Shown: positions 6,943 to 63,093 of the stretch, in pieces
How positions within the stretch are numbered: position 1 is the first letter of the stretch
Layout: each line of letters begins with the position of its first letter
NCBI GenBank assembly: GCA_003452965.1
Contig: DMMW01000084.1
Span: forward strand, 20 to 64,019
DNA from: Elusimicrobiota bacterium
GTDB lineage: Bacteria > Elusimicrobiota > UBA8919
Length of the DNA: 64,000 bases
Reading direction: 5' to 3'
The notes under the pieces: generated by a model
The model's input: the letters and a program-made list of their open reading frames with translations, nothing else
Told to the model about the DNA's origin: nothing
Database searches by the model: none
Position numbers and translations under genes: made by a program

Positions 6943-8121
6943 ATGAATTTTAGTAAAATAGTGTTAGTATGCATACAAAGTATTATTATTTTTGTTCCGA
7001 TAATATATTTTATTTTACCCGATAACGGTCATATAATAAGCAAAGTTTTATTCGGGATTTTAGGTATTTTGCTGTTTGTTATGTTATTTTTAAAAGTATA
7101 TTTGAAAAAAATATGGATGCAGAACGCCTACCTTAAAATTCCTCTTTTTCTATATTTATTTACGATACTTATTTCAGTTAAAAACTCCGGAAATGTTAAA
7201 TTGGTGTTTGAATCTGCATTGTTTTTTTTGATATTGATGCTTATCTACTATGTAGTTCTTTTATTTTCTGAAAAAGAACGGTCATCGCTAATAAATGCTT
7301 TTATTGTTTCAGCCGCTGTAATAACATGTTTTGCTTTTTCACAATATTTGAGTATCAACTTTTTTAAGTGGTTGCCGAATTTTATTATTGATTTTAATAT
7401 TAATAATTATTCAGGCTTTTTTTTATTAATGTTTCCGATTATTTTTATTATGATGATACAAACAAGAGGAATATTAAAGCATGTTTTTTTGATGCTATTC
7501 TGTTTTGTTATATGTATCAATTTAATTGTCACAAAAATATGCAGCGTATGGGTTATTTTTCTGGTATCTATGCTTTTATTGGTATATGGACAGGTTATTT
7601 ATCTGAAAAGAAAATTTAGTACAATTAAAAGAATATCAAGAGGCAGCTACTGGATATCACTCATGGTTTTTGCCATATTGCTTTTTTCTATAGATAAATA
7701 CGGTACATTGAAAAAATATATCTGTAGAGATGATGTATTGGTAAATAATAGCGTAACATATTTTATGGCAGCTTGGCAGACAGTGAAAGAGTTCCCTGTT
7801 TTTGGAATCGGTGCGGGCAGTACTCCTAAGTATAATAGCGGAATTTTTATCAAGCATTTTATTGAGACAGGTTTATTGGGGTTAGCGATATATGTCTTGA
7901 TATTTATCCGTTATTTTTATATTTGTATAAGCGGTTTTTTAAAAAACATTGATTTTAAAGAAAGTGATTTTAATATGCTTTTTGGAATATTCATTGGAAT
8001 TACCTCGTTTTTCTTGCATACTTTAACAATTTACTCATTTTTTGCATTCCCAGTGTATATTATTCTTTTTGTTTTTCTCGGTCTTTCCGAATCCTATCTA
8101 AAGAATAGTGCGATAGTGTGA
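6943..8121 (+). CDS. polytopic membrane protein, O-antigen ligase/polymerase (Wzy_C)-like
   Basis: About 10 or more predicted TM segments with the large loop typical of the O-antigen ligase family; weak call. Confidence 0.5.
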   Translation: MNFSKIVLVCIQSIIIFVPIIYFILPDNGHIISKVLFGILGILLFVMLFLKVYLKKIWMQNAYLKIPLFLYLFTILISVKNSGNVKLVFESALFFLILMLIYYVVLLFSEKERSSLINAFIVSAAVITCFAFSQYLSINFFKWLPNFIIDFNINNYSGFFLLMFPIIFIMMIQTRGILKHVFLMLFCFVICINLIVTKICSVWVIFLVSMLLLVYGQVIYLKRKFSTIKRISRGSYWISLMVFAILLFSIDKYGTLKKYICRDDVLVNNSVTYFMAAWQTVKEFPVFGIGAGSTPKYNSGIFIKHFIETGLLGLAIYVLIFIRYFYICISGFLKNIDFKESDFNMLFGIFIGITSFFLHTLTIYSFFAFPVYIILFVFLGLSESYLKNSAIV

Positions 8122-8200
8122 TAGTGCCTGCCCGCCCCCACCACTGAAACGTTGGCGGGCAAGAAAGGTTTAGTGGCGGGCGATAGTGTGTCCGCCGTCC
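8110..8200. repeat. GC-rich hairpin element (MITE/REP-like) flanked by an 11-bp direct repeat GCGATAGTGTG
   Basis: GCGATAGTGTG at 8110-8120 and 8180-8190 flanks CCCACCACTGAAAC...GTTTAGTGGCGGG inverted arms; related copies at 39590-39650 and 45165-45225 (inverted). Confidence 0.6.
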
Positions 8201-8291
8201 AAAGGAGGAAGATTCCATTAACCTATCCTATCCCACAATGCCCCTTTTTCTTATGTTGACAAACAAGTATAAAAAAACTAAAATATAATTA

Positions 8292-8858
8292 ATGAAACCG
8301 GGTATACCAATCGTTATTTCAGCACCTTCAGGTGCAGGTAAAACTACTATAGTTAATCTTATACTTAAAAGAATTAAAGGTCTGAAATATTCCATATCGA
8401 CAACAACTCGGCCGCCTTCAAAAAATGAAAAAAACGGCAGGGACTATTACTTTCTGTCAAAAAAAGAGTTTTTAAATAAAAGGAAAGCAAGGAAATTCAT
8501 TGAAACAGCCATAGTACACGGATATTATTACGGAACACTTAAAGAAAAACTTGATAATAACCTTAAGAAGGGCAAAGATGTAGTATTGAATATTGATGTA
8601 AAAGGTGCATTAAATGTAAAAAAAATATATCCGGAGTCGTTGTTGATTTTCGTTATTCCACCTTCAATGAAAGTGCTTGAAGATAGATTGAGAAAACGCC
8701 ATCGTGATTCCGAACAGGAAATAAAAAAACGGTTAAAGAATGCAAAAATGGAAATGGAATATAGAAAGTATTATGATTATATAGTAGTGAATGATTCGCT
8801 GGAGAAAGCGTTTAACGAAATAAAGAACATTATTAAAGAGAGGATGAAAAATGACTGA
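8292..8858 (+). CDS. gmk: guanylate kinase
   Basis: P-loop SAPSGAGKTT; 188 aa, typical length and family composition. Confidence 0.9.
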   Translation: MKPGIPIVISAPSGAGKTTIVNLILKRIKGLKYSISTTTRPPSKNEKNGRDYYFLSKKEFLNKRKARKFIETAIVHGYYYGTLKEKLDNNLKKGKDVVLNIDVKGALNVKKIYPESLLIFVIPPSMKVLEDRLRKRHRDSEQEIKKRLKNAKMEMEYRKYYDYIVVNDSLEKAFNEIKNIIKERMKND

Positions 8859-9399: not shown

Positions 9400-10028
9400 A
9401 AAAGAAAGTTGTTTTGATAACAGCGGGTCCTACAAAGGAATATATTGATCCTATAAGGTTTATTTCTAATGATTCTTCCGGCAAAATGGGTTATCTTTTA
9501 GCGGAGGAATCTAAGAAATTAGGGGATGTAATTTTAATTAGCGGCCCGACCTGTCTAAAACCGCCTAAAGGAATAAAATTTATCAAAGTTATTTCCGCCT
9601 CGGAAATGTTTAATCAGGTTAAAAAATATTTTAACAAATGCGATGTTTTTATTTCTTGTGCCGCGGTAAGCGACTATAAGGTAAAAAATGCATCTAAAGA
9701 TAAGATAAAGAAAACAATCGGGAAACTAAAATTGGAATTGATATCTAATCCGGATATTCTTCTTGAAGTTTCAAAAGAAAAATATAATAATAAAAGGATT
9801 CTTGTTGGTTTTGCACTTGAAACTAATAATTTGATTAAAAATGCGCAAAATAAGTTTATTAAGAAAAAGTTGGATATCATAATTGCAAACGAGCCAAGCA
9901 CAATCAATAGTGACAGAAGCAAAGGCGCTATTATAACCGAAGATAAAATTAAAAAATTCAAAAGCATTTCAAAAAAGTCTTTAGCTGAAATAATTATTGG
10001 TGATATAAGAGGAGTATTAACACGCTGA
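9396..10028 (+). CDS. coaB: phosphopantothenate-cysteine ligase (CoaB)
   Basis: VLITAGPTKEYIDPIRFISNDSSGKMG motif; overlaps the coaC stop. Confidence 0.85.
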   Translation: MKKKVVLITAGPTKEYIDPIRFISNDSSGKMGYLLAEESKKLGDVILISGPTCLKPPKGIKFIKVISASEMFNQVKKYFNKCDVFISCAAVSDYKVKNASKDKIKKTIGKLKLELISNPDILLEVSKEKYNNKRILVGFALETNNLIKNAQNKFIKKKLDIIIANEPSTINSDRSKGAIITEDKIKKFKSISKKSLAEIIIGDIRGVLTR

Positions 10029-20172: not shown

Positions 20173-20828
20173 GTATAGAGATTTCACCGTCAATATTATC
20201 TGCGGATTTTTCAAACTTAATATCTGATATCAGCGAATGTGAAAAAGAGAATATCGGTATTTTTCATATTGATGTAATGGATGGTCATTTCGTGCCCAAC
20301 ATAACAATAGGTTCTGTGGTAGTTGAATCAATAAGAAAAAAAACTAAATCTATCTTGGATACACATCTGATGATCGAAAATCCGGAGCGTTATGTAGAAG
20401 CGTTTGCAAAAGCGGGCAGCGACTGGATAACTTTCCATATTGAAACGACAAACAGTCCGTTAGGGATAATAAAAAAAATAAAAGATTTAAATGTAAAAGC
20501 CGGAATTTCATTAAATCCCGGAACCCCGATAGAAAAGATTAAACCGTATCTTGAAGATGTTTTTATGGTTATGGTAATGAGCGTCAATCCCGGTTTTGGC
20601 GGCCAGAAATTCATGCCAACAGTTTTATCAAAAGTAAGCCGGCTTAAGGAATGTAGGGGGAAACTTAAAAATAAATTTAAAATAGGTATTGATGGTGGAA
20701 TAAATTTTGATACGATATCCGAGGTTGTGAAAGCAGGTGCTGAATTGGTTGTGGCCGGTTCCGCAGTATTTAAAACCGAATTAGGGATTAGAAAAAGCAT
20801 AGAAAAACTAAGAGAATTATCAAAATAG
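20169..20828 (+). CDS. rpe: ribulose-phosphate 3-epimerase
   Basis: SILSADF, HIDVMDGHFVPN and MVMSVNPGFGGQKF motifs. Confidence 0.92.
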   Translation: MSIEISPSILSADFSNLISDISECEKENIGIFHIDVMDGHFVPNITIGSVVVESIRKKTKSILDTHLMIENPERYVEAFAKAGSDWITFHIETTNSPLGIIKKIKDLNVKAGISLNPGTPIEKIKPYLEDVFMVMVMSVNPGFGGQKFMPTVLSKVSRLKECRGKLKNKFKIGIDGGINFDTISEVVKAGAELVVAGSAVFKTELGIRKSIEKLRELSK

Positions 20829-20829
20829 T

Positions 20830-20871
20830 TCATCCGCCTACGCTCTATCGAGCTTCGGCGAGACAAGGGGG
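20830..20871 (-). repeat. partial inverted copy of the 114-bp dispersed repeat; its G-run forms the rpsP RBS
   Basis: Reverse complement matches CCCTTGTCTCGCCGAAGCTC.TA.GAGCGTAGGCGGA of the elements at 45231-45344 and 62627-62740. Confidence 0.6.
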
Positions 20872-29558: not shown

Positions 29559-29957
29559 ATGTATAAAAAACCGATTTTTGTGGTTCATAAACATTCAGCG
29601 AAACATTTGCATTATGATTTTCGGCTTGAACATAGCGGTGTTTTAAAGAGTTGGGCGATTCCAAAAGAACCTGTAAATGATTCAAAGATAAAGAGATTAG
29701 CGATATGGGTAGATGACCATCCTCTTGATTATGCAGATTTTTCAGGCATAATTCCCGAAGGCAAGTACGGTGCAGGAAAAGTTGAAATATGGGATAGGGG
29801 TGAATACACTCCGATAAAGTTTGAAGAAGACGAAGTAATTTTTAATCTTCAGGGAGAAAGATTAAAGGGAAATTTTTGTTTGCTTAAGTTGAAAAAAAAT
29901 AATACCAAAGGTAAAAATTGGCTGTTTTTTAAAATGCATCAAAAAGGCAGCGGATAG
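29559..29957 (+). CDS. stand-alone DNA ligase D 3'-phosphoesterase (PE) domain protein
   Basis: FVVHKHSAKHLHYDFRLE..LKSWAIPK..HPLDYADF..IPEGKYGAG.VEIWDRGEY matches the LigD PE domain signature end to end. Confidence 0.8.
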   Translation: MYKKPIFVVHKHSAKHLHYDFRLEHSGVLKSWAIPKEPVNDSKIKRLAIWVDDHPLDYADFSGIIPEGKYGAGKVEIWDRGEYTPIKFEEDEVIFNLQGERLKGNFCLLKLKKNNTKGKNWLFFKMHQKGSG

Positions 29958-30030
29958 CGTTCCGCCAGCTGGCGGGGAGGTTAGCGTATAGTGAAAAGAG
30001 ATAATAAAAATTAAATACTAACCTCTAACC
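29943..30030 (+). repeat. dispersed repeat with CCGCCAGCTGGCGG palindrome and GAGGTTAG/CTAACCTC inverted termini
   Basis: Near-identical inverted copy at 38741-38830; the first 25 bp also occur as a direct repeat at 29487-29515 on the other side of the PE gene. Confidence 0.65.
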
Positions 30031-30055
30031 CCTGATTTCAAAGAAGGATGTTAAA

Positions 30056-31171: not shown

Positions 31172-31185
31172 AAAAGTTAATATAT

Positions 31186-31315
31186 ACGACCTCCGTGGTT
31201 TACCCCGATGGATCGGGGTTGTTTACTCGGTCGTTGCAGTAGCTACGACCTCCGTGGTTTACCCCGATGGATCGGGGTTGTTTACTCGGTCGTTGCAGTA
31301 GCTACGACCTCCGTG
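31186..31315. repeat. 59-bp GC-rich structured tandem repeat, 2.2 copies
   Basis: Unit ACGACCTCCGTGGTTTACCCCGATGGATCGGGGTTGTTTACTCGGTCGTTGCAGTAGCT starts at 31186, 31245 and 31304 (partial); nested stems ACGACC/GGTCGT and CCCCGAT/ATCGGGG. Confidence 0.85.
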
Positions 31316-33811: not shown

Positions 33812-33945
33812 GACATCCTAAAAAAGAAAAGATGTCTGATTACATAGATTAGAAAACAGATTACACAGATTTTATTATAGGATTAGGTTCTAATCGGTGT
33901 AATCGATGTTAATAATCTGAGTAATCATTTTATTAAGGAAAATTT

Positions 33946-38740: not shown

Positions 38741-38830
38741 GTATAGAGATTAGAGGTTAGTATTTAATTTTTATTATCTCTTTTCAATATACGCTAACCT
38801 CTCCGCCAGCTGGCGGAACGCTATCCGCTG
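38741..38830 (-). repeat. inverted copy of the CCGCCAGCTGGCGG-containing dispersed repeat
   Basis: Reverse complement is about 95% identical to 29943-30030. Confidence 0.65.
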
Positions 38831-39505: not shown

Positions 39506-39570
39506 GTATACAGAGTATACAGAGTATACAGAGTATACAGAGTATACAGAGTATACACATAGTATACTTC
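39506..39570. repeat. tandem 9-mer (GTATACAGA) x6 microsatellite
   Basis: Direct reading of the sequence; degenerate 7th unit. Confidence 0.8.
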
Positions 39571-39711
39571 GTTACTGAATTATAGGGTTTTATAGTTATT
39601 CCGCTATTTCATCCACTAAAACACTGGCGGGCAAGATAGAATCAGTATCGGGATGGATGATCTCTGTAAATTGTAGTGTTGTTTTTTTAATTCCTCAAGT
39701 GATAATTAAAG

Positions 39712-40413: not shown

Positions 40414-40518
40414 ATTGTGACTATCTATAGGTCACTATATAGGTCAGTCGGGCACAATCCCACAGTCCCGCTGTCGCATAATTTTATACATTAATTAAAT
40501 AATGAAAGTGGAGGAAAA

Positions 40519-41076
40519 ATGGTTGGCCAGATTTTATTACAGACAGAAGATAAGATGAAAAAGACAATGGAGCATTTGAGGTTGGAATTGATGATGCTCA
40601 AAACCGGACGTGCCACTCCGACAATATTGGACATTGTAAAAGTAAGATATTATGATTCTGATTTGCCGGTTAATCAGGTGGCGAGTATTTCCATCCCTGA
40701 GCCACGGCTTATAGTTATAACGCCATGGGAAAAAGGGGTATTGCCTGAAATAGAAAAAGCAATACTTAAAGCAGACATCGGCATAACACCGCAAAACGAT
40801 GGTAAGGTAATAAGGCTTCCCATACCTGCCCTAACGGAGGAACGAAGAAAGGATATAATAAAAACAGCTAAAAAAATAACGGAAGACCATAAAGTTGAAA
40901 TGAGAAATGAGAGAAGGGATTCCCAAGAATTGATAAAGAAAAGTTTTAATGATAAAAAAATGACGGAAGATGAAAAATATAAGTTACAAGAAGAATTACA
41001 GAAAATGACAGAAAGTTATATAAAAAAGTTGGATGAAATGTTGTTAATCAAAGAAAAAGAGATAATGACAGTATAA
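40519..41076 (+). CDS. frr: ribosome recycling factor
   Basis: Characteristic RRF length and composition; conserved position after pyrH. Confidence 0.9.
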   Translation: MVGQILLQTEDKMKKTMEHLRLELMMLKTGRATPTILDIVKVRYYDSDLPVNQVASISIPEPRLIVITPWEKGVLPEIEKAILKADIGITPQNDGKVIRLPIPALTEERRKDIIKTAKKITEDHKVEMRNERRDSQELIKKSFNDKKMTEDEKYKLQEELQKMTESYIKKLDEMLLIKEKEIMTV

Positions 41077-41078
41077 TA

Positions 41079-41165
41079 GAGGCAAGTATAAATATAAAGT
41101 TAAAATTAAAATAAAAATAGAATAGAGGCAAGTATAAATATAAAGTTAAAATTAAAATTAAAACC
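41079..41165. repeat. AT-rich direct repeat of about 37 bp x2 plus inverted AT-rich arm
   Basis: ATAGAGGCAAGTATAAATATAAAGTTAAAATTAAAAT at 41079 and 41127; downstream TTAATTTTAACTTT is complementary. Confidence 0.6.
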
Positions 41166-45164: not shown

Positions 45165-45225
45165 TATTTACCCGCCAATGGTTCCTTGTCCGCCAATGCT
45201 TTAGTGGTGGAAGTGGTGGGCACAG
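45165..45225 (-). repeat. GC-rich hairpin element, inverted copy of the 8127-8200 family
   Basis: Reverse complement reads CCACCACTAAAGCATTGGCGGACAAG, cf. CCACCACTGAAACGTTGGCGGGCAAG at 8138. Confidence 0.55.
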
Positions 45226-45230
45226 ATTAT

Positions 45231-45344
45231 GGAACCCCGTAGAACGGGGTTGTAGCCTTGTTCGGTGCGGTAGGTCCCTTGTCTCGCCGAAGCTCATAAG
45301 AGCGTAGGCGGACGAACTTCGTGTACAAGATTACACAGATTAAG
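45231..45344 (+). repeat. 114-bp dispersed repeat, copy 1
   Basis: About 97% identical to 62627-62740; begins GGAACCCCGTAGAACGGGG and ends ATTACACAGATTAAG. Confidence 0.85.
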
Positions 45345-45473
45345 ACATGATGAAGACAAAGTGAAAAAAGAATCTGATTATTGCAACAAAAGTTACATTT
45401 GAAATTTTGTCTGATAACTCCAGCTTCGTAGGAAGTCTTGCAAAAAATAATTGAAGGTTTAGACAAATAGAAA

Positions 45474-46565
45474 ATGAATATAATAGGTAAAATAACAGGT
45501 ATAAAATATAAAGTAATTCTATCTGAGAACTTAAAGAAAGTTGACATCAAAAATTTTGACATCAACGAAGCACCTTCGTCTTGTGTTATTACAGATAATA
45601 AACATTCTTTTGCTATTTCAAAGTGGGTTTCACCCAAGCGGACACGTTCATATCCATTTGAACGAGTTTTTAACACGCTCAACATTTCAAGGAAAATTAC
45701 TGTTATACCAATCGTAAAAGATGAAGGAGCAAAAGGAGACAGGGATTTCATACAGTGGGACACAGTTTCTTTAATGTCGTTGTTAGACGTGTTTGTAATT
45801 TTTGCTTATTACATAAAAGCGGAAAAAGTAAACCGAAAAATAACCAACCAACAATTTGACAACAAATATGTTCTCTCTAAAATTAAAGAAATTAAACAAT
45901 ATCACAGTTCGGCATTACATTGGAATTTAAACGAAATCAACACTAACTTGCATAACATCATTAACAAAGTAAAATCTTTCTACGCAAAAATTGAAAAATC
46001 AACAAACGTAAAACTTCACGGTTCGAAGGGTACTGGAAATTTTCAAAATAAAATTGGAAAAGATGTTTCATTATTTATGGCATTTTCTAGAGGGAAAGCA
46101 GAAAGAGCTCAATCAATAGAATTTGTAACCCGTCAACCTAAGGAAAGTTTATCGACACTCTCAAAAGCAAAAATTACCATTACAAACTATTTGGGTGGAC
46201 AGTATTTTTTTACTGTAGATGAGATACTTATTACGAAAGAAAAAGTAAGTTTAATAGAAAGTAAACACAGTAAAAATGTAACACTTCCGAGTAAAAGCGA
46301 CATCAAAGATGGTTTGCTGAAAATGATTTTGTATTGCAACTTAACGGATGTAACAGTAAACGGAATAAAAATTAAATGTGAAGCTGTTTTATGTTTGACA
46401 TCTTCAAAACTTAAAGGAGGAATTTCATCCTTCAGTACTAAAAGTGAACTTTCAACGTTTTTTGCGAAAAATAATCTTTCAGAATCACAAATTTTTCTAA
46501 TTGAAACGGTAATAGCAGAAGCGAAACAAAATAAGTTTATAATTAAGGTAAAATATTCAAAATGA
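45474..46565 (+). CDS. putative type II restriction endonuclease (unrecognised family)
   Basis: 363-aa ORF translationally coupled (ATGA overlap) to a Dam-family MTase; candidate PD-(D/E)xK-like residues in TVDEILITKEKVSLIESKHS. Confidence 0.45.
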   Translation: MNIIGKITGIKYKVILSENLKKVDIKNFDINEAPSSCVITDNKHSFAISKWVSPKRTRSYPFERVFNTLNISRKITVIPIVKDEGAKGDRDFIQWDTVSLMSLLDVFVIFAYYIKAEKVNRKITNQQFDNKYVLSKIKEIKQYHSSALHWNLNEINTNLHNIINKVKSFYAKIEKSTNVKLHGSKGTGNFQNKIGKDVSLFMAFSRGKAERAQSIEFVTRQPKESLSTLSKAKITITNYLGGQYFFTVDEILITKEKVSLIESKHSKNVTLPSKSDIKDGLLKMILYCNLTDVTVNGIKIKCEAVLCLTSSKLKGGISSFSTKSELSTFFAKNNLSESQIFLIETVIAEAKQNKFIIKVKYSK

Positions 46566-47491
46566 TAAAAAGCCCACTAAGATATCCTGGAGGCAAAAGT
46601 AGAGCTGTTAAATTGATATCAACTCTTTTGCCAGAATTTGACGAATTTAGAGAACCATTTTTAGGTGGTGGTTCTCTTTTTATTTATGTTAAACAACGAT
46701 TTCCTAATAAGAAATATTGGATTAACGACCTCTATTTAGAACTTTTTAAATTTTGGGAAATGGCACAAAAAGATGTCGATACTTTGATTGACAATATTTA
46801 TGAATGGCGAAATAAATATCCAGTTGGAAAAGAGTTACATAAATTTTTAAATAATAATTTAGAGGGGTTTAACGATTTGGAGAGGGCTGCAGCATTTTTT
46901 ATCTACAATCGTATAACATTTTCAGGAACAAGTTTAAGTGGTGGTTTTAGTGAAGGTGCTTTTACGGGACGTTTTACAAAAAGCAGTATTCAACGACTTA
47001 ACCAATTTGCTAAAGTAATTAATGGCTCAACTATCACTAATCTTGACTACGAAGAATTAGTAAAACAAGAAGGCGAAAATGTATTTATCTTTCTTGATCC
47101 ACCGTATTTTTCTGCGACAAAATCCGCACTATATGGAAAGAATGGGAATATGCATAAGTCGTTTGACCATAAAAAATTTGCAGAAATAATGCGAAATTGC
47201 AAACATAAATGGCTCATAACTTATGATGACAGTGAATATATAAGAGAGCTTTTCTCATTTGCTAACATCATTCCTTGGGATTTAACTTATGGAATGCGGA
47301 ACGTAACCAAGGGTTCAAACCAGAAAGGAAAAGAACTTTTTATATCAAACTATTTAAAACAACTTCCCAGAAAACAACAGATGACTTTATTTGAGCCGAA
47401 AGTGAAATATGTAGCTAAAAAAGAATCATATCACATTTCGTCACCAAGTAAAAAGAGGAATATACATAAAAGTAAAAGAAACGGGTTTTAA
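46562..47491 (+). CDS. N6-adenine DNA methyltransferase, D12 class (Dam family)
   Basis: PLRYPGGKSR N-terminus, FxGxG motif (EPFLGGGSLF), catalytic DPPY (IFLDPPYF). Confidence 0.85.
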   Translation: MIKSPLRYPGGKSRAVKLISTLLPEFDEFREPFLGGGSLFIYVKQRFPNKKYWINDLYLELFKFWEMAQKDVDTLIDNIYEWRNKYPVGKELHKFLNNNLEGFNDLERAAAFFIYNRITFSGTSLSGGFSEGAFTGRFTKSSIQRLNQFAKVINGSTITNLDYEELVKQEGENVFIFLDPPYFSATKSALYGKNGNMHKSFDHKKFAEIMRNCKHKWLITYDDSEYIRELFSFANIIPWDLTYGMRNVTKGSNQKGKELFISNYLKQLPRKQQMTLFEPKVKYVAKKESYHISSPSKKRNIHKSKRNGF

Positions 47492-47706
47492 TTTTTGAAA
47501 CATAACACACAACTGTTATCTTTGTAAGTTTGATTTTTCCACTTTTCATCAGAAGTTTTTATGGAGGATTGGAAACAATAAGTTGCTATTATCTTCTCAA
47601 GTCGGAATCTTATTAAGTAAAGAGATAAAGAGGTAGTTGATAGATTGGTTATCAATGCACAATCGCACAATCCCACTATCACGCTATATCACGAATTTTT
47701 AGTATT

Positions 47707-48858
47707 ATGAAGACAAAGAAAGTTAGAATAGGAAATATATATATAGGTGGTGGTGAGCCTGTCCGTGTTCAGTCAATGACAAAGACAAAAACGGCAGACT
47801 GGAAATCCACTGTTAATCAAATAAGAAAACTGCAGGTCTTGGGTTGTGAGATTATCCGTGTTGCAGTTCCCGATATGAATTCTGCAAAAGTTCTTTCAAA
47901 AATAAAAAAAAACATAAAAATTCCTTTGGTTGCAGATATTCATTTTGATTGGCGGTTAGCGGTTGAAGCGATAAATCAAGGTGTTGATAAAATAAGGATT
48001 AATCCAGGCAATATCGGTTCCCGGGAAAATGTAGAGAAAATCATAATTGCTGCAAAAAAAAAGAAAGTAGCCATCCGTGTAGGTGTAAATGCAGGTTCTT
48101 TAAAAATTCTTAAAAAGTCTGACAGTTGGACGAAGATGTCTACTAAAGAACGTGCTTATCAGATGGTAAAGGAATTACTGGAAAATATTAAAATTATTGA
48201 AGAAATGAATTTTTCCGATATAGTAGTATCATTAAAAGCAAACGATGTTCCGACAACAATTCTGGCAAACGAATTGTACTCAAAAAGAAGAAAATATCCG
48301 ATTCATTTGGGTATTACAGAAGCAGGCACGGAGTTTTCCGGCATCATAAAGTCAGCGGCAGCATTCGGAGTCCTGCTTAATCAAGGGATAGGTGATACTA
48401 TAAGAGTCTCTTTGACCGCTTTGCCGGACGAAGAAATAAAAACCGGGTGGGAAATTTTGAAAACACTTGGTTTAAGAAAAAGAGGGATAGAAATTATTTC
48501 CTGTCCAACTTGTGGCAGATGTCAAACAGATTTAATTAAAATCGTCCATCAGTTAGAAAAACAAATTACAAATTATCCGCCCCGAATCCGCCAGCTGGCG
48601 GATGGGGCGAGACCTCGCCAAAGGTTCAGTGGTGGGCAAATTACAAATTCGCCACTGAAAGTTGCCGTCATGGGTTGTGTCGTAAACGGCCCAGGAGAGG
48701 CAAGAGATGCTGATATAGGAATTGCCGGCGGAAAAGGATTCGGTTTGCTTTTTAAAAAAGGTAAAGTAATAAAGAAAATACCTCAAAATAAATGGGTCGT
48801 TGAAATAATAAAAGAGATTAAAAACAGTCAGTATAAATCAGTTTTAGAATCTGTTTAA
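47707..48858 (+). CDS. ispG: 4-hydroxy-3-methylbut-2-enyl diphosphate synthase (IspG/GcpE)
   Basis: TIM-barrel N-domain; 4Fe-4S Cys motifs CPTCGRC and GCVVNGPGE; carries a repeat-derived insert of about 25 aa between them. Confidence 0.9.
   Translation: MKTKKVRIGNIYIGGGEPVRVQSMTKTKTADWKSTVNQIRKLQVLGCEIIRVAVPDMNSAKVLSKIKKNIKIPLVADIHFDWRLAVEAINQGVDKIRINPGNIGSRENVEKIIIAAKKKKVAIRVGVNAGSLKILKKSDSWTKMSTKERAYQMVKELLENIKIIEEMNFSDIVVSLKANDVPTTILANELYSKRRKYPIHLGITEAGTEFSGIIKSAAAFGVLLNQGIGDTIRVSLTALPDEEIKTGWEILKTLGLRKRGIEIISCPTCGRCQTDLIKIVHQLEKQITNYPPRIRQLADGARPRQRFSGGQITNSPLKVAVMGCVVNGPGEARDADIGIAGGKGFGLLFKKGKVIKKIPQNKWVVEIIKEIKNSQYKSVLESV
48576..48665 (+). repeat. GC-rich palindromic repeat inserted in frame inside ispG
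   Basis: Contains CCGCCAGCTGGCGG and the TTCAGTGGTGGG...CGCCACTGAAA hairpin shared with intergenic repeats; encodes YPPRIRQLADGARPRQRFSGGQITN. Confidence 0.7.
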
Positions 48859-54163: not shown

Positions 54164-54297
54164 TTGTTAAAAAACAATCAATGATTGCACAGATGAACAA
54201 CAAGATTACACAGATTAGAGCATGTAGTTAAATATTTGTAATTGTCTTTAAAAATCTGTGTAATCGCTTTTTGAAATCTGTGTAATCTGGAGTTCAA

Positions 54298-62594: not shown

Positions 62595-62626
62595 AGATTG
62601 TTGATAAAATCAACAATCTCTGATTA

Positions 62627-62740
62627 CACGGATTGGGGAACCCCGTAGAACGGGGATGTAGCCTTGTTCGGTGTGGTAGGTCCCTTGTCTCGCCGAAGCT
62701 CATAAGAGCGTAGGCGGACGAACTTCGTGTACAAAATTAC
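62627..62740 (+). repeat. 114-bp dispersed repeat, copy 2
   Basis: About 97% identical to 45231-45344; preceded by TGATTACACGGATT and ends AATTACACAGATTAAG. Confidence 0.85.
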
Positions 62741-63093
62741 ACAGATTAAGGCAAGACGTCAAGACCATTTGAGTTTTTTTTGATAGTCTCAAAGTGAAAA
62801 ATGTTGATTATTACAAAAAATTTTCAAAAACAGTAGAAAAAGATTTTTAATATTATAAGGTTATTGAAAAATCTCGTCAAGATGTCATTCCTGCAAAAGT
62901 AGGAATCTATACTCAGACATGAATGGATTCCCAATAATAATGTTCGGGAATGATGGCAAGGGATTTTTAACGACAAATTTGAAAATGATGATGCTTTTTT
63001 ATAATTCATTTCCAATCAGTCGGACACTGTCTGGACAATCTAAAAAAGATAAGGAAATTGTAATTGGTTGGAAATATTGACAAAATTATATAA

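Follow-up and report, generated by a model that had tools for sequence, protein, structure and literature searches.

The question raised by the spacer between the gene of a 392-aa membrane protein and gmk is whether the GC-rich hairpin cluster found there is a miniature inverted-repeat transposable element (MITE) that duplicated its target upon insertion, or a repeat that moves in some other way. This locus lies within a 64-kb stretch of DNA (hereafter the window; 34% GC, with 62 of 62 long open reading frames, or ORFs, on the + strand) from an uncultured groundwater Elusimicrobia, of which near-identical strains have been repeatedly sampled from a single aquifer, and the cluster itself sits after the stop codon of the membrane-protein gene and before the gmk promoter (Table 1). 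The host assignment comes from exact protein matches, the gmk protein bearing the name Elusimicrobia bacterium RIFOXYD2_FULL_34_30. A sequence-only reading of the window had taken an 11-nt word present on both sides of the cluster for the target-site duplication of a MITE. The best-supported description is instead a new family of hairpin modules, similar to repetitive extragenic palindromes (REP) and bacterial interspersed mosaic elements (BIME) and of the size of small dispersed repeats (SDR), which nest in each other and occasionally lie in frame in essential genes.

The most direct evidence comes from strains of the same species. Contigs with an identical gmk were available from 22 independent assemblies, 10 of which were fetched along with four more carrying a slightly different gmk variant (numbers preceded by L designate fetched contigs or loci, i.e., assemblies, related genomes and metagenome contigs). 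Over the 12–19 kb compared per strain around the site, these are 99.6–100% identical to the window, and the JGI contig Ga0103681_1000061 is 100% identical to window positions 29712-50413. The hairpin site occurs as three alleles among these near-identical strains, in an aligned spacer of ~240 bp that is otherwise identical: a full allele as in the window (at least 10 assemblies), a short allele (three independent assemblies, L004, L009 and L185) and an empty allele (L006, reading ...GTGATAGTGCCTGTCCGCC...). The short allele consists of a single 24-nt hairpin with perfect 11-bp direct repeats on either side (GATAGTGCCTG + CCCGCC GAAAGTTTAGT GGCGGGC + GATAGTGCCTG + TCCGCC). It is separated from the full allele by three changes, namely a 26-nt block (8137-8162), one loop G and a CC, and the 26-nt block corresponds to exactly one further inverted hairpin unit, without microhomology at its junctions. 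The site with a single flank copy that the sequence-only reading had suggested seeking in a related strain does exist, since L006 holds GCGATAGTGTG and GATAGTGCCTG only once.

Both the full and the short allele accompany each of two gmk protein variants. An attempt to polarize these alleles with an outgroup failed: the sister species is syntenic at the locus (65% amino-acid identity in the neighboring membrane protein), its spacer is AT-rich and unalignable, and the closer RIFOXYC2_FULL_34_12 strains bear both full and short alleles. The data weakly favor an older full allele, in which case the polymorphism would stem from the loss of units or from their cassette-like replacement. No further polymorphic hairpin site was seen in the other ~55 kb across 5–10 strains, nor in the sister-species strains.

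The repeat on which the MITE proposal was founded is present, in a register other than the one first proposed. GCGATAGTGTG occurs exactly twice in the 64 kb, at 8110-8120 and 8180-8190, without any other match at ≤1 mismatch (0.21 matches are expected from shuffles, and 2 of 100 shuffles reach two), and the 59 nt between the copies are indeed GC-rich (57% vs. 34% for the window). The first copy, which overlaps the end of the membrane-protein coding sequence, lies inside a three-unit octamer array, and the second is made up of the GC of the hairpin end (8180-8181) followed by the right flank copy. The 11-mer match is therefore partly a register effect, because the left flank is a periodic array, and the unit that is duplicated between alleles is GATAGTGCCTG, which ends with CCTG, a 4-nt leader that recurs in front of hairpin units. 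The degenerate hairpin that follows (8191-8209) can be read directly in every allele, the “empty” one included; together with CCTG it mimics the 5′ half of the unit, so that the short allele contains an imperfect direct repeat of 18 nt, GATAGTGCCTGYCCGCCG. The 24-nt hairpin of the short allele folds better as single-stranded DNA than shuffles (z −3.4), whereas the 58-nt core of the full allele folds no better than composition-matched ones (z −0.5 on the + strand and −1.1 on the − strand).

All copies in the window reduce to this one 24-nt stem-loop, CCCGCC-(N)AAAGNTTYAGT-GGYGGG-C. Units of the family end with GGGC and in many cases follow a 4-nt leader (CCTG, CTTG, TTTA or NATG). Within two mismatches, CCACCACTRAAAC has 7 matches in the window vs. 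1.7 expected, and TGGCGGGCAAGA 9 vs. 2.3. The related cores previously reported at 39590-39650 and inside ispG are genuine (78% identical over 39613-39652, and a canonical unit at 48614-48636, respectively), and so is the one at 45165-45225 (45171-45221), which had been described as a reverse complement but has the same orientation. At the gmk locus, one unit lies inverted within the loop of another, so that 8131-8181 is a BIME/REPIN-like doublet. Doublets are likewise found at 45167-45221 and, with the same architecture as the latter, at L150:3013 in the sister species, while larger clusters occur in ispG and at L155, L153 and L156. The long-form composite recurs at 39600-39653 (a decayed copy without flanking duplication, fixed in all compared strains) and at L150:2193 in the sister species, which indicates that the long form propagates as a unit; an origin purely by nested insertion was accordingly retained only in part. 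Substitutions in the stem either compensate each other (position 1 changes from C-G to T-A, and position 4 from G-C to A-T) or lead to G-T wobble on the unit’s own strand. Counted over all 62 pattern matches, many of which are chance matches, the pairs at position 4 are G-C (36), G-T (17), A-T (5) and A-C (3), and position 1 alternates between C-G and T-A.

The claim that these hairpins are or were mobile is supported by the strain alleles, by sites that are empty in relatives, and by in-frame copies missing from close homologues. In the sister species, the gmk spacer is an AT-rich 86 bp with neither GC hairpin nor GATAGTG array, and the ispG linker has no GC hairpin. Downstream of rseP, neither the sister species nor strain L013 has a hairpin at the site of the third copy (45167-45221), and L013 also lacks the probable restriction-modification island that adjoins this copy. 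Compared to these two empty sites, the copy is a clean insertion of 54-55 nt between GATTA and CACAGATT, without duplication, at a junction that splits a pre-existing GATTACACAGATT motif. A simple unit at another locus of the sister species (L112/L150) has identical junctions (GATTA/TTTA-CCCGCC ... GGG/CACAGATTA, slashes marking the borders).

Insertion also reaches into coding sequences. In ispG, a comparison with the Aquifex protein (3NOY) shows 25 added codons after the CPTCGR motif and before the VAVMGC motif, the window protein being 383 aa long vs. 357-367 aa in the closest Elusimicrobia homologues, all of which are without this block, and the ORF is intact in every strain compared. Similarly, a unit encoding PAKGLVAG is part of a 19-residue insertion (relative to 2YWE) in lepA of Elusimicrobia UBA4817 (L116 7204-7260), and the linker of a GH38 alpha-mannosidase in a Desantisbacteria metagenome-assembled genome (MAG; L080 6790-6890) includes an in-frame unit within a three-hairpin cluster. 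It is whole units that are gained or lost, both between genes and in permissive linkers of essential genes. The variable IspG linker of this clade consists of short tandem repeats, (TTTTAAC)x4 in the sister species and, in other Elusimicrobia, peptide repeats such as LLATRYSLLAT (alignment columns 301-330), a pattern suggesting that such repeats are tolerated in frame at this position.

We then asked of the flanks whether they bear the mark of a classical MITE, that is, an element derived from an insertion sequence (IS) and cut and pasted by a DDE transposase, whose staggered cuts would leave an 11–13 bp target-site duplication. Several features are as such an origin would have them: perfect 11-bp repeats surround the short allele and a single copy is found in the empty site, and the ispG cluster is enclosed in a perfect 13-bp repeat, CAAATTACAAATT, such that the 62-nt cluster and one repeat add up to 75 nt and keep the frame, which fits a true 13-bp duplication. 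In some strains, IS30-like and Y1 transposase genes also lie near the window start. However, the 20-nt flanks of 28 out of 29 distinct contexts share a longest word of 3–6 nt, which is the background level of mismatched pairs, the sole exception being the short allele at the gmk site (11 nt), and ispG is the only other site with a long direct repeat. The lengths of the two repeats differ, and the nested inner unit at 8137-8163, like the copy at 45167-45221, is a clean insertion without flanking duplication. Flanking duplication is not a trait of this family.

Neither are the flanking words specific to the element, since duplicated flanks copy motifs already present in arrays: GATAGTG-type octamer arrays occur without any hairpin at 47657-47690 and 40452-40475, and GATTACACAGATT has 15 matches within two mismatches in the window vs. 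2.3 expected. At the rseP-downstream site, two GATTACACAGATT copies 22 bp apart are ancestral, the pair being kept in the sister species, and in the IspG linker of the sister species (L179 4858-4890) the exact position at which CAAATTA units surround the window cluster is occupied by an array of heptamers, (TTTTAAC)x4. The two observations that the sequence-only reading had named as refuting it, copies without flanking duplication and a flank word that is common apart from the element, have thus largely been made. Units sit preferentially inside such short host motif arrays (GATAGTG octamers, CAAATTA heptamers and GATTACACAGATT). No terminal inverted repeat extends beyond the 6–7 bp hairpin stem of this 24–28 nt unit, the ends of the IS30-like and Y1 elements near the window are unrelated to the hairpin, and no gene-bearing element bounded by the hairpin was found in the 188 loci fetched, which cover a fraction of the genome. 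The GATTACACAGATT motif is further present upstream of topA and ftsZ as two direct and two inverted copies with a spacing of ~21–22 bp (sites at 33838-33926, 54183-54287, 45329-45341 and 62622-62747), and it may be a protein-binding or recombination motif.

Beyond the window species and its sister, the 24-mer was detected in unrelated flanks in Elusimicrobia RIFOXYD2_FULL_34_15 and UBA4817, in two Omnitrophota MAGs and in one Desantisbacteria MAG, and a CCCACC/GGTGGG variant is found in the cyanobacterium Scytonema, inside a longer GTAGGG...CCCTAC palindrome. The scan of species-representative genomes used a loose pattern with 15 fixed bases, and the matches listed were mostly chance matches in coding DNA, with ~8 true hairpins among the 119 stretches listed, as judged from a complementary 5′ arm that the pattern did not demand. 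A specific pattern retrieved the unit from 23 metagenome contigs of 32–57% GC with unrelated flanks, where it often adjoins other CCGCC/GGCGG hairpins and lies outside long ORFs in ~2/3 of cases; its orientation relative to flanking genes is mixed. A phage origin was rejected, the unit pattern having 0 matches in viral contigs, and a literature search with the hairpin sequence strings returned unrelated primers only. Two arrangements of these hairpins were encountered along the way. In a 154-kb metagenome contig, the canonical hairpin lies within a 143-bp unit present as three tandem copies (L163 11872-12181). At ~980-1290 of L153 / L158, a second partial copy of the anticodon arm (CTTGCTTTGGGAGCAAGAGG) occurs downstream of a tRNA gene, with two GC hairpins splitting this tRNA-fragment copy from its 5′ part and further hairpins, including a canonical unit, after it, an arrangement that resembles the insertion of hairpins into a duplicated piece of a tRNA.

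Two functional explanations of the hairpin were considered and rejected. A structured RNA is not indicated, with no Rfam match at the gathering threshold in the window (region 8000-8320 gave only noise in a search to E 10, i.e., lncRNA and miRNA models with E above 2) and no tRNA or tmRNA predicted by ARAGORN. An intrinsic terminator is not indicated either, with no terminator-like site predicted in 7900-8400 and a mixed orientation relative to transcription.

Taken together, we consider it somewhat probable that the flagged sequence represents a small cluster of hairpin modules of the REP-like type, maintained by the following route of copying and loss. A unit, in the form of a single-stranded DNA hairpin, would be copied from array to array at replication forks or close to them. 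Its placement would be guided by the short homology of the arrays, through template switching or ectopic conversion, by an enzyme acting in trans, or by both, and its removal would occur through hairpin-stimulated deletion between flanking repeats. The 11-bp “duplication” would then be an extra local octamer copy plus the CCTG leader, either carried in with the unit or made by unequal exchange, rather than the fixed-length footprint of a transposase. This mechanism is the one that we infer and consider most likely.

A number of observations weigh against this account. Both 8120-8190 and ispG have long perfect direct repeats (11 and 13 bp), and the array homology of 7–14 nt is short for recombination. 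With three changes between them, the full and short alleles do not constitute a simple insertion pair, and a single nucleotide polymorphism (SNP) at 9479, common to the short, empty and one full haplotype, points weakly to loss instead of gain. As a total of ~85 kb of the window species and its sister species was compared, few cases underlie what is said of copy number and target preference. Finally, no mobilizing protein for the hairpin was found among the loci examined, and the one candidate, a gene like those of RAYTs (REP-associated tyrosine transposases), was rejected on its profile score, its different conserved inverted repeat and its absence from the fetched flanks of the hairpins (see below).

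Among the alternatives, one that we regard as doubtful is that the 24–28 nt stem-loop with its conserved loop is a cross-phylum mobile “nano-element”. It would spread horizontally among groundwater Elusimicrobia, Omnitrophota and Desantisbacteria (with cyanobacterial relatives) through a novel insertion mechanism that sometimes duplicates 11–13 bp of target, and would at times land in frame, as in ispG and lepA. Insertion could be carried out by a loop-recognizing trans-acting enzyme, or by microhomology-templated copying between host motif arrays.

Unlikely in our view is a REP/REPIN system proper, in which a RAYT (Y1/HUH) excises hairpins and inserts them as single-stranded DNA without duplications. 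Strand-specific G-T wobble along with compensatory stem changes, inverted doublets and clusters, and the near-absence of duplications all speak for such a system, as do the identical junctions in GATTA^CACAGATTA at two loci, which suggest site specificity, and the Scytonema variant within its longer GTAG...CTAC palindrome. A RAYT-like Y1 gene (PF01797) is moreover present in the same genome, directly upstream of window position 1 (L006 1022-1770; L001 and L007 689-1675), where four assemblies end within the gene and where an IS30-like transposase gene (HTH_38 + rve) adjoins it in some strains. However, this gene scores 67 bits against the NCBIfam model NF047646 (REP-associated tyrosine transposase), under the curated cut-off of 80 bits, and is flanked by a different repeat, namely perfect 31-nt inverted repeats with the core GGGGACAGCG (flank AATAAAGGGGACAGCGACCTTTATT). 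Two homologues, in L181 and L183 (57-58% identical), have the same GGGGACAG core in their flanks, and homologues are common in Omnitrophota, with the inverted repeat GGGGACAGCG likewise conserved; this repeat is not dispersed in the window. Searched by tblastn, the fetched flanks of ~30 hairpin loci contained no Y1 gene, and neither a GTAG nor a CGTC tag is present on the Elusimicrobia units. Because the Y1 gene is flanked by GGGGACAGCG and no Y1 gene is found at hairpin loci, these data do not place the family within REP-RAYT systems.

A purely local process appears improbable. Under this explanation, replication slippage or unequal exchange of a tandem unit (GATAGTG + CCTG + hairpin) between GATAGTGCCTGYCCGCCG repeats, as in E. 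coli BIME clusters, would have produced the alleles without any mobility at this site, and the family likeness elsewhere would reflect common descent or selection for a structural role. With the CCTG-TCCGCC-GTCCAAA-GGAGGA relic kept in the empty allele, the short allele may be viewed as a tandem pair of units with an 18-nt imperfect repeat, the difference between short and empty being one repeat unit; in addition, a 59-mer (31185), a 9-mer (39506) and an AT-rich 46-mer (41075) vary among the same strains, and the SNP pattern hints at loss. Slippage does not, however, account for a whole inverted unit without junction homology (full vs. short), clean insertions at positions where the sister species and L013 have no hairpin, in-frame insertions in ispG and lepA, or identical 24-mers in unrelated contexts across phyla. 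Likewise improbable is the classical MITE with a target-site duplication, given the few duplications, the pre-existing flank motifs, the lack of terminal inverted repeats other than the stem and the absence of a cognate transposase among the loci examined.

Compared to known systems, the modular hairpin family preferred here is closest to REP, BIME and REPIN sequences, which are short GC-rich palindromes, some of them inside ORFs (Di Nocera et al., 2013, PMC3733652; Bertels and Rainey, 2011, PMC3116915). The 24-nt unit agrees with these in size, repetition and layout, as a short (20–40 nt) imperfect GC-rich palindrome that is dispersed, mostly extragenic between co-oriented genes, and organized as singles, inverted doublets and mosaic clusters, with G-T stem pairs, some copies in ORFs and strain-variable copies. 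It differs in that the GTAG/CGTC end tag of the REP superfamilies (PMC3733652) is absent from the Elusimicrobia units, the Scytonema variant alone lying within such a palindrome. It also differs in that the only RAYT-like gene encountered has an unrelated flanking inverted repeat, in the presence of 11–13 bp direct repeats at two sites, and in a conserved loop with the same 24-mer across phyla, REP families being as a rule restricted to a species or genus. Rickettsia palindromic elements (RPE) are ~100–150 bp long vs. 24 nt for the unit, are confined to Rickettsia and in some cases end with CGTC. These palindromes of an AT-rich genome lie in frame within the genes of functional conserved proteins (PMC3733652), a behavior also seen in the in-frame copies in intact conserved genes (ispG here, lepA and GH38 in relatives). 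This likeness is one of behavior only, the sequences being unrelated.

SDR units reportedly measure 21–27 nt. They nest in other repeats and associate with heptamer tandem repeats in host genomes, and no protein is known to mobilize them. SDRs of Nostoc and other cyanobacteria (Elhai et al., 2008, Genome Res 18:1484, as cited in PMC3116915 and PMC2884548) are presented in PMC2884548 as ~20 bp long, tandemly repeated and possibly mobile. In behavior our unit resembles them, with a very small size, nesting in other repeats and a mobility inferred from insertion into otherwise conserved sequence, and it differs in its hosts, which are non-cyanobacterial uncultured phyla, with a close hairpin variant in the cyanobacterium Scytonema. 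MITEs typically measure 100–400 bp or more, far above the 24–28 nt of our unit; their terminal inverted repeats correspond to those of a parent IS, and practically all copies have a duplication of fixed length. The hairpins resemble MITEs such as Correia/NEMIS, ERIC and Nezha in being non-coding, hairpin-forming, dispersed and polymorphic for presence, with direct repeats at two copies; they differ in having neither a fixed-length duplication at nearly all copies nor IS-related terminal inverted repeats. A MITE-like empty site with a single GATAGTGCCTG is found in L006, where it can be read as the product of either insertion or deletion.

Table 1. Coordinates of the hairpin cluster upstream of gmk, its surroundings and the related copies in the window.
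Feature	Position	Strand	Remark
392-aa membrane-protein gene	6943-8121	+	Stop TGA 8119-8121
Octamer array AATAGTGC GATAGTGT GATAGTGC	8104-8127	+	Supplies last codons and TGA of CDS 6943-8121
GATAGTGCCTG, unit duplicated between alleles	8120-8130	+	From strain allele comparison
Long-form hairpin composite	8131-8181	+	Outer unit, loop interrupted by inverted inner unit
Outer unit	CCCGCC 8131-8136 ... AAAGGTTTAGT 8164-8174, GGCGGG 8175-8180, C 8181	+	
Inner unit CTTG-CCCGCC-AACGTTTCAGT-GGTGGG	8137-8163	-	Inverted relative to outer unit
Right flank copy GATAGTG--TG	8182-8190	+	CC missing in full allele
Degenerate hairpin TCCGCC-GTCCAAA-GGAGGA	8191-8209	+	In every allele
Sigma-70-like gmk promoter TTGACA-17-TAAAAT	8256-8284	+	11/12 matches
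gmk	start 8292	+	Downstream of hairpin cluster
Decayed long-form copy, tsf-pyrH spacer	39600-39653	+	Aligned 39613-39652, 78% identical
Copy 3, TTTA leader and outer unit CCCGCC...AGT-GGTGGG-C	45167-45221	+	Nested inner unit
Copy 3 inner unit CCTTG-TCCGCC-AATGCTTTAGT-GGTGGA	45184-45211	+	Same orientation as outer unit
ispG insertion	48562-48649	+	CAAATTACAAATT 48562-48574, 62-nt GC-rich cluster 48575-48636, CAAATTACAAATT 48637-48649
Canonical unit CTCGCC-AAAGGTTCAGT-GGTGGG	48614-48636	+	End of ispG cluster

Other repeats were noticed in the window. Repeat “B” (45221-45350 and 62627-62756, ~105–130 nt, 94% identical copies, with a partial reverse copy at 20827-20869) contains GTAG motifs along with the hairpin CCCCGTAGAACGGGG and lies between GATTACACAGATT-type motifs; these flanking repeats are pre-existing motif copies and not duplications. 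Several assemblies break in “B”, with starts at 45299 in L141 and L144 and ends at 62734 in L172 and 62715 in L173, and the copy at 45230 replaces a 9-nt spacer of L013 and the sister species. The cluster of hairpin and “B” repeat also forms the left border of a two-gene island at 45474-47491, which encodes a 363-aa ORF of no assigned family and a Dam-like methyltransferase (PF02086) and is probably a restriction-modification system. L013 and the sister species have an ORF of 103–123 aa in its place. An 86-nt inverted repeat pair (29948-30033 / 38745-38830, 95% complementary, 8.7 kb apart) includes the palindrome CCGCCAGCTGGCGG, which is also found within the ispG insertion (48588-48601).

Three tandem repeats vary in length among the strains: a perfect 59-nt GC-rich repeat at 31185-31315 (2.2 copies; one unit fewer in L015, L017 and L020, and apparently one more, mostly scaffold Ns, in L014), a 9-nt repeat, GTATACAGA x5.8, at 39506-39567, and an AT-rich 46-nt repeat at 41075-41163. 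In the sister species, a 154-bp GC-rich insert with GTTTACAGGTGGAATCTT and GTTTCAGGTGGGAATCTTG lies between pgm and the membrane-protein gene (L174 5847-6000), two genes that abut in the window species (6941/6943).

REP, BIME, RPE and SDR sequences have been known for decades, and how the smallest of them move is still unclear. The hairpin family described here unites a three-allele polymorphism, an occurrence in several uncultured phyla and in-frame copies in essential genes, which makes the question of how such units are copied and removed a testable one. For the genomes that harbor them, these units and the neighboring repeats break assemblies and generate strain markers, and the units add peptide loops to conserved enzymes that annotation pipelines will not flag.

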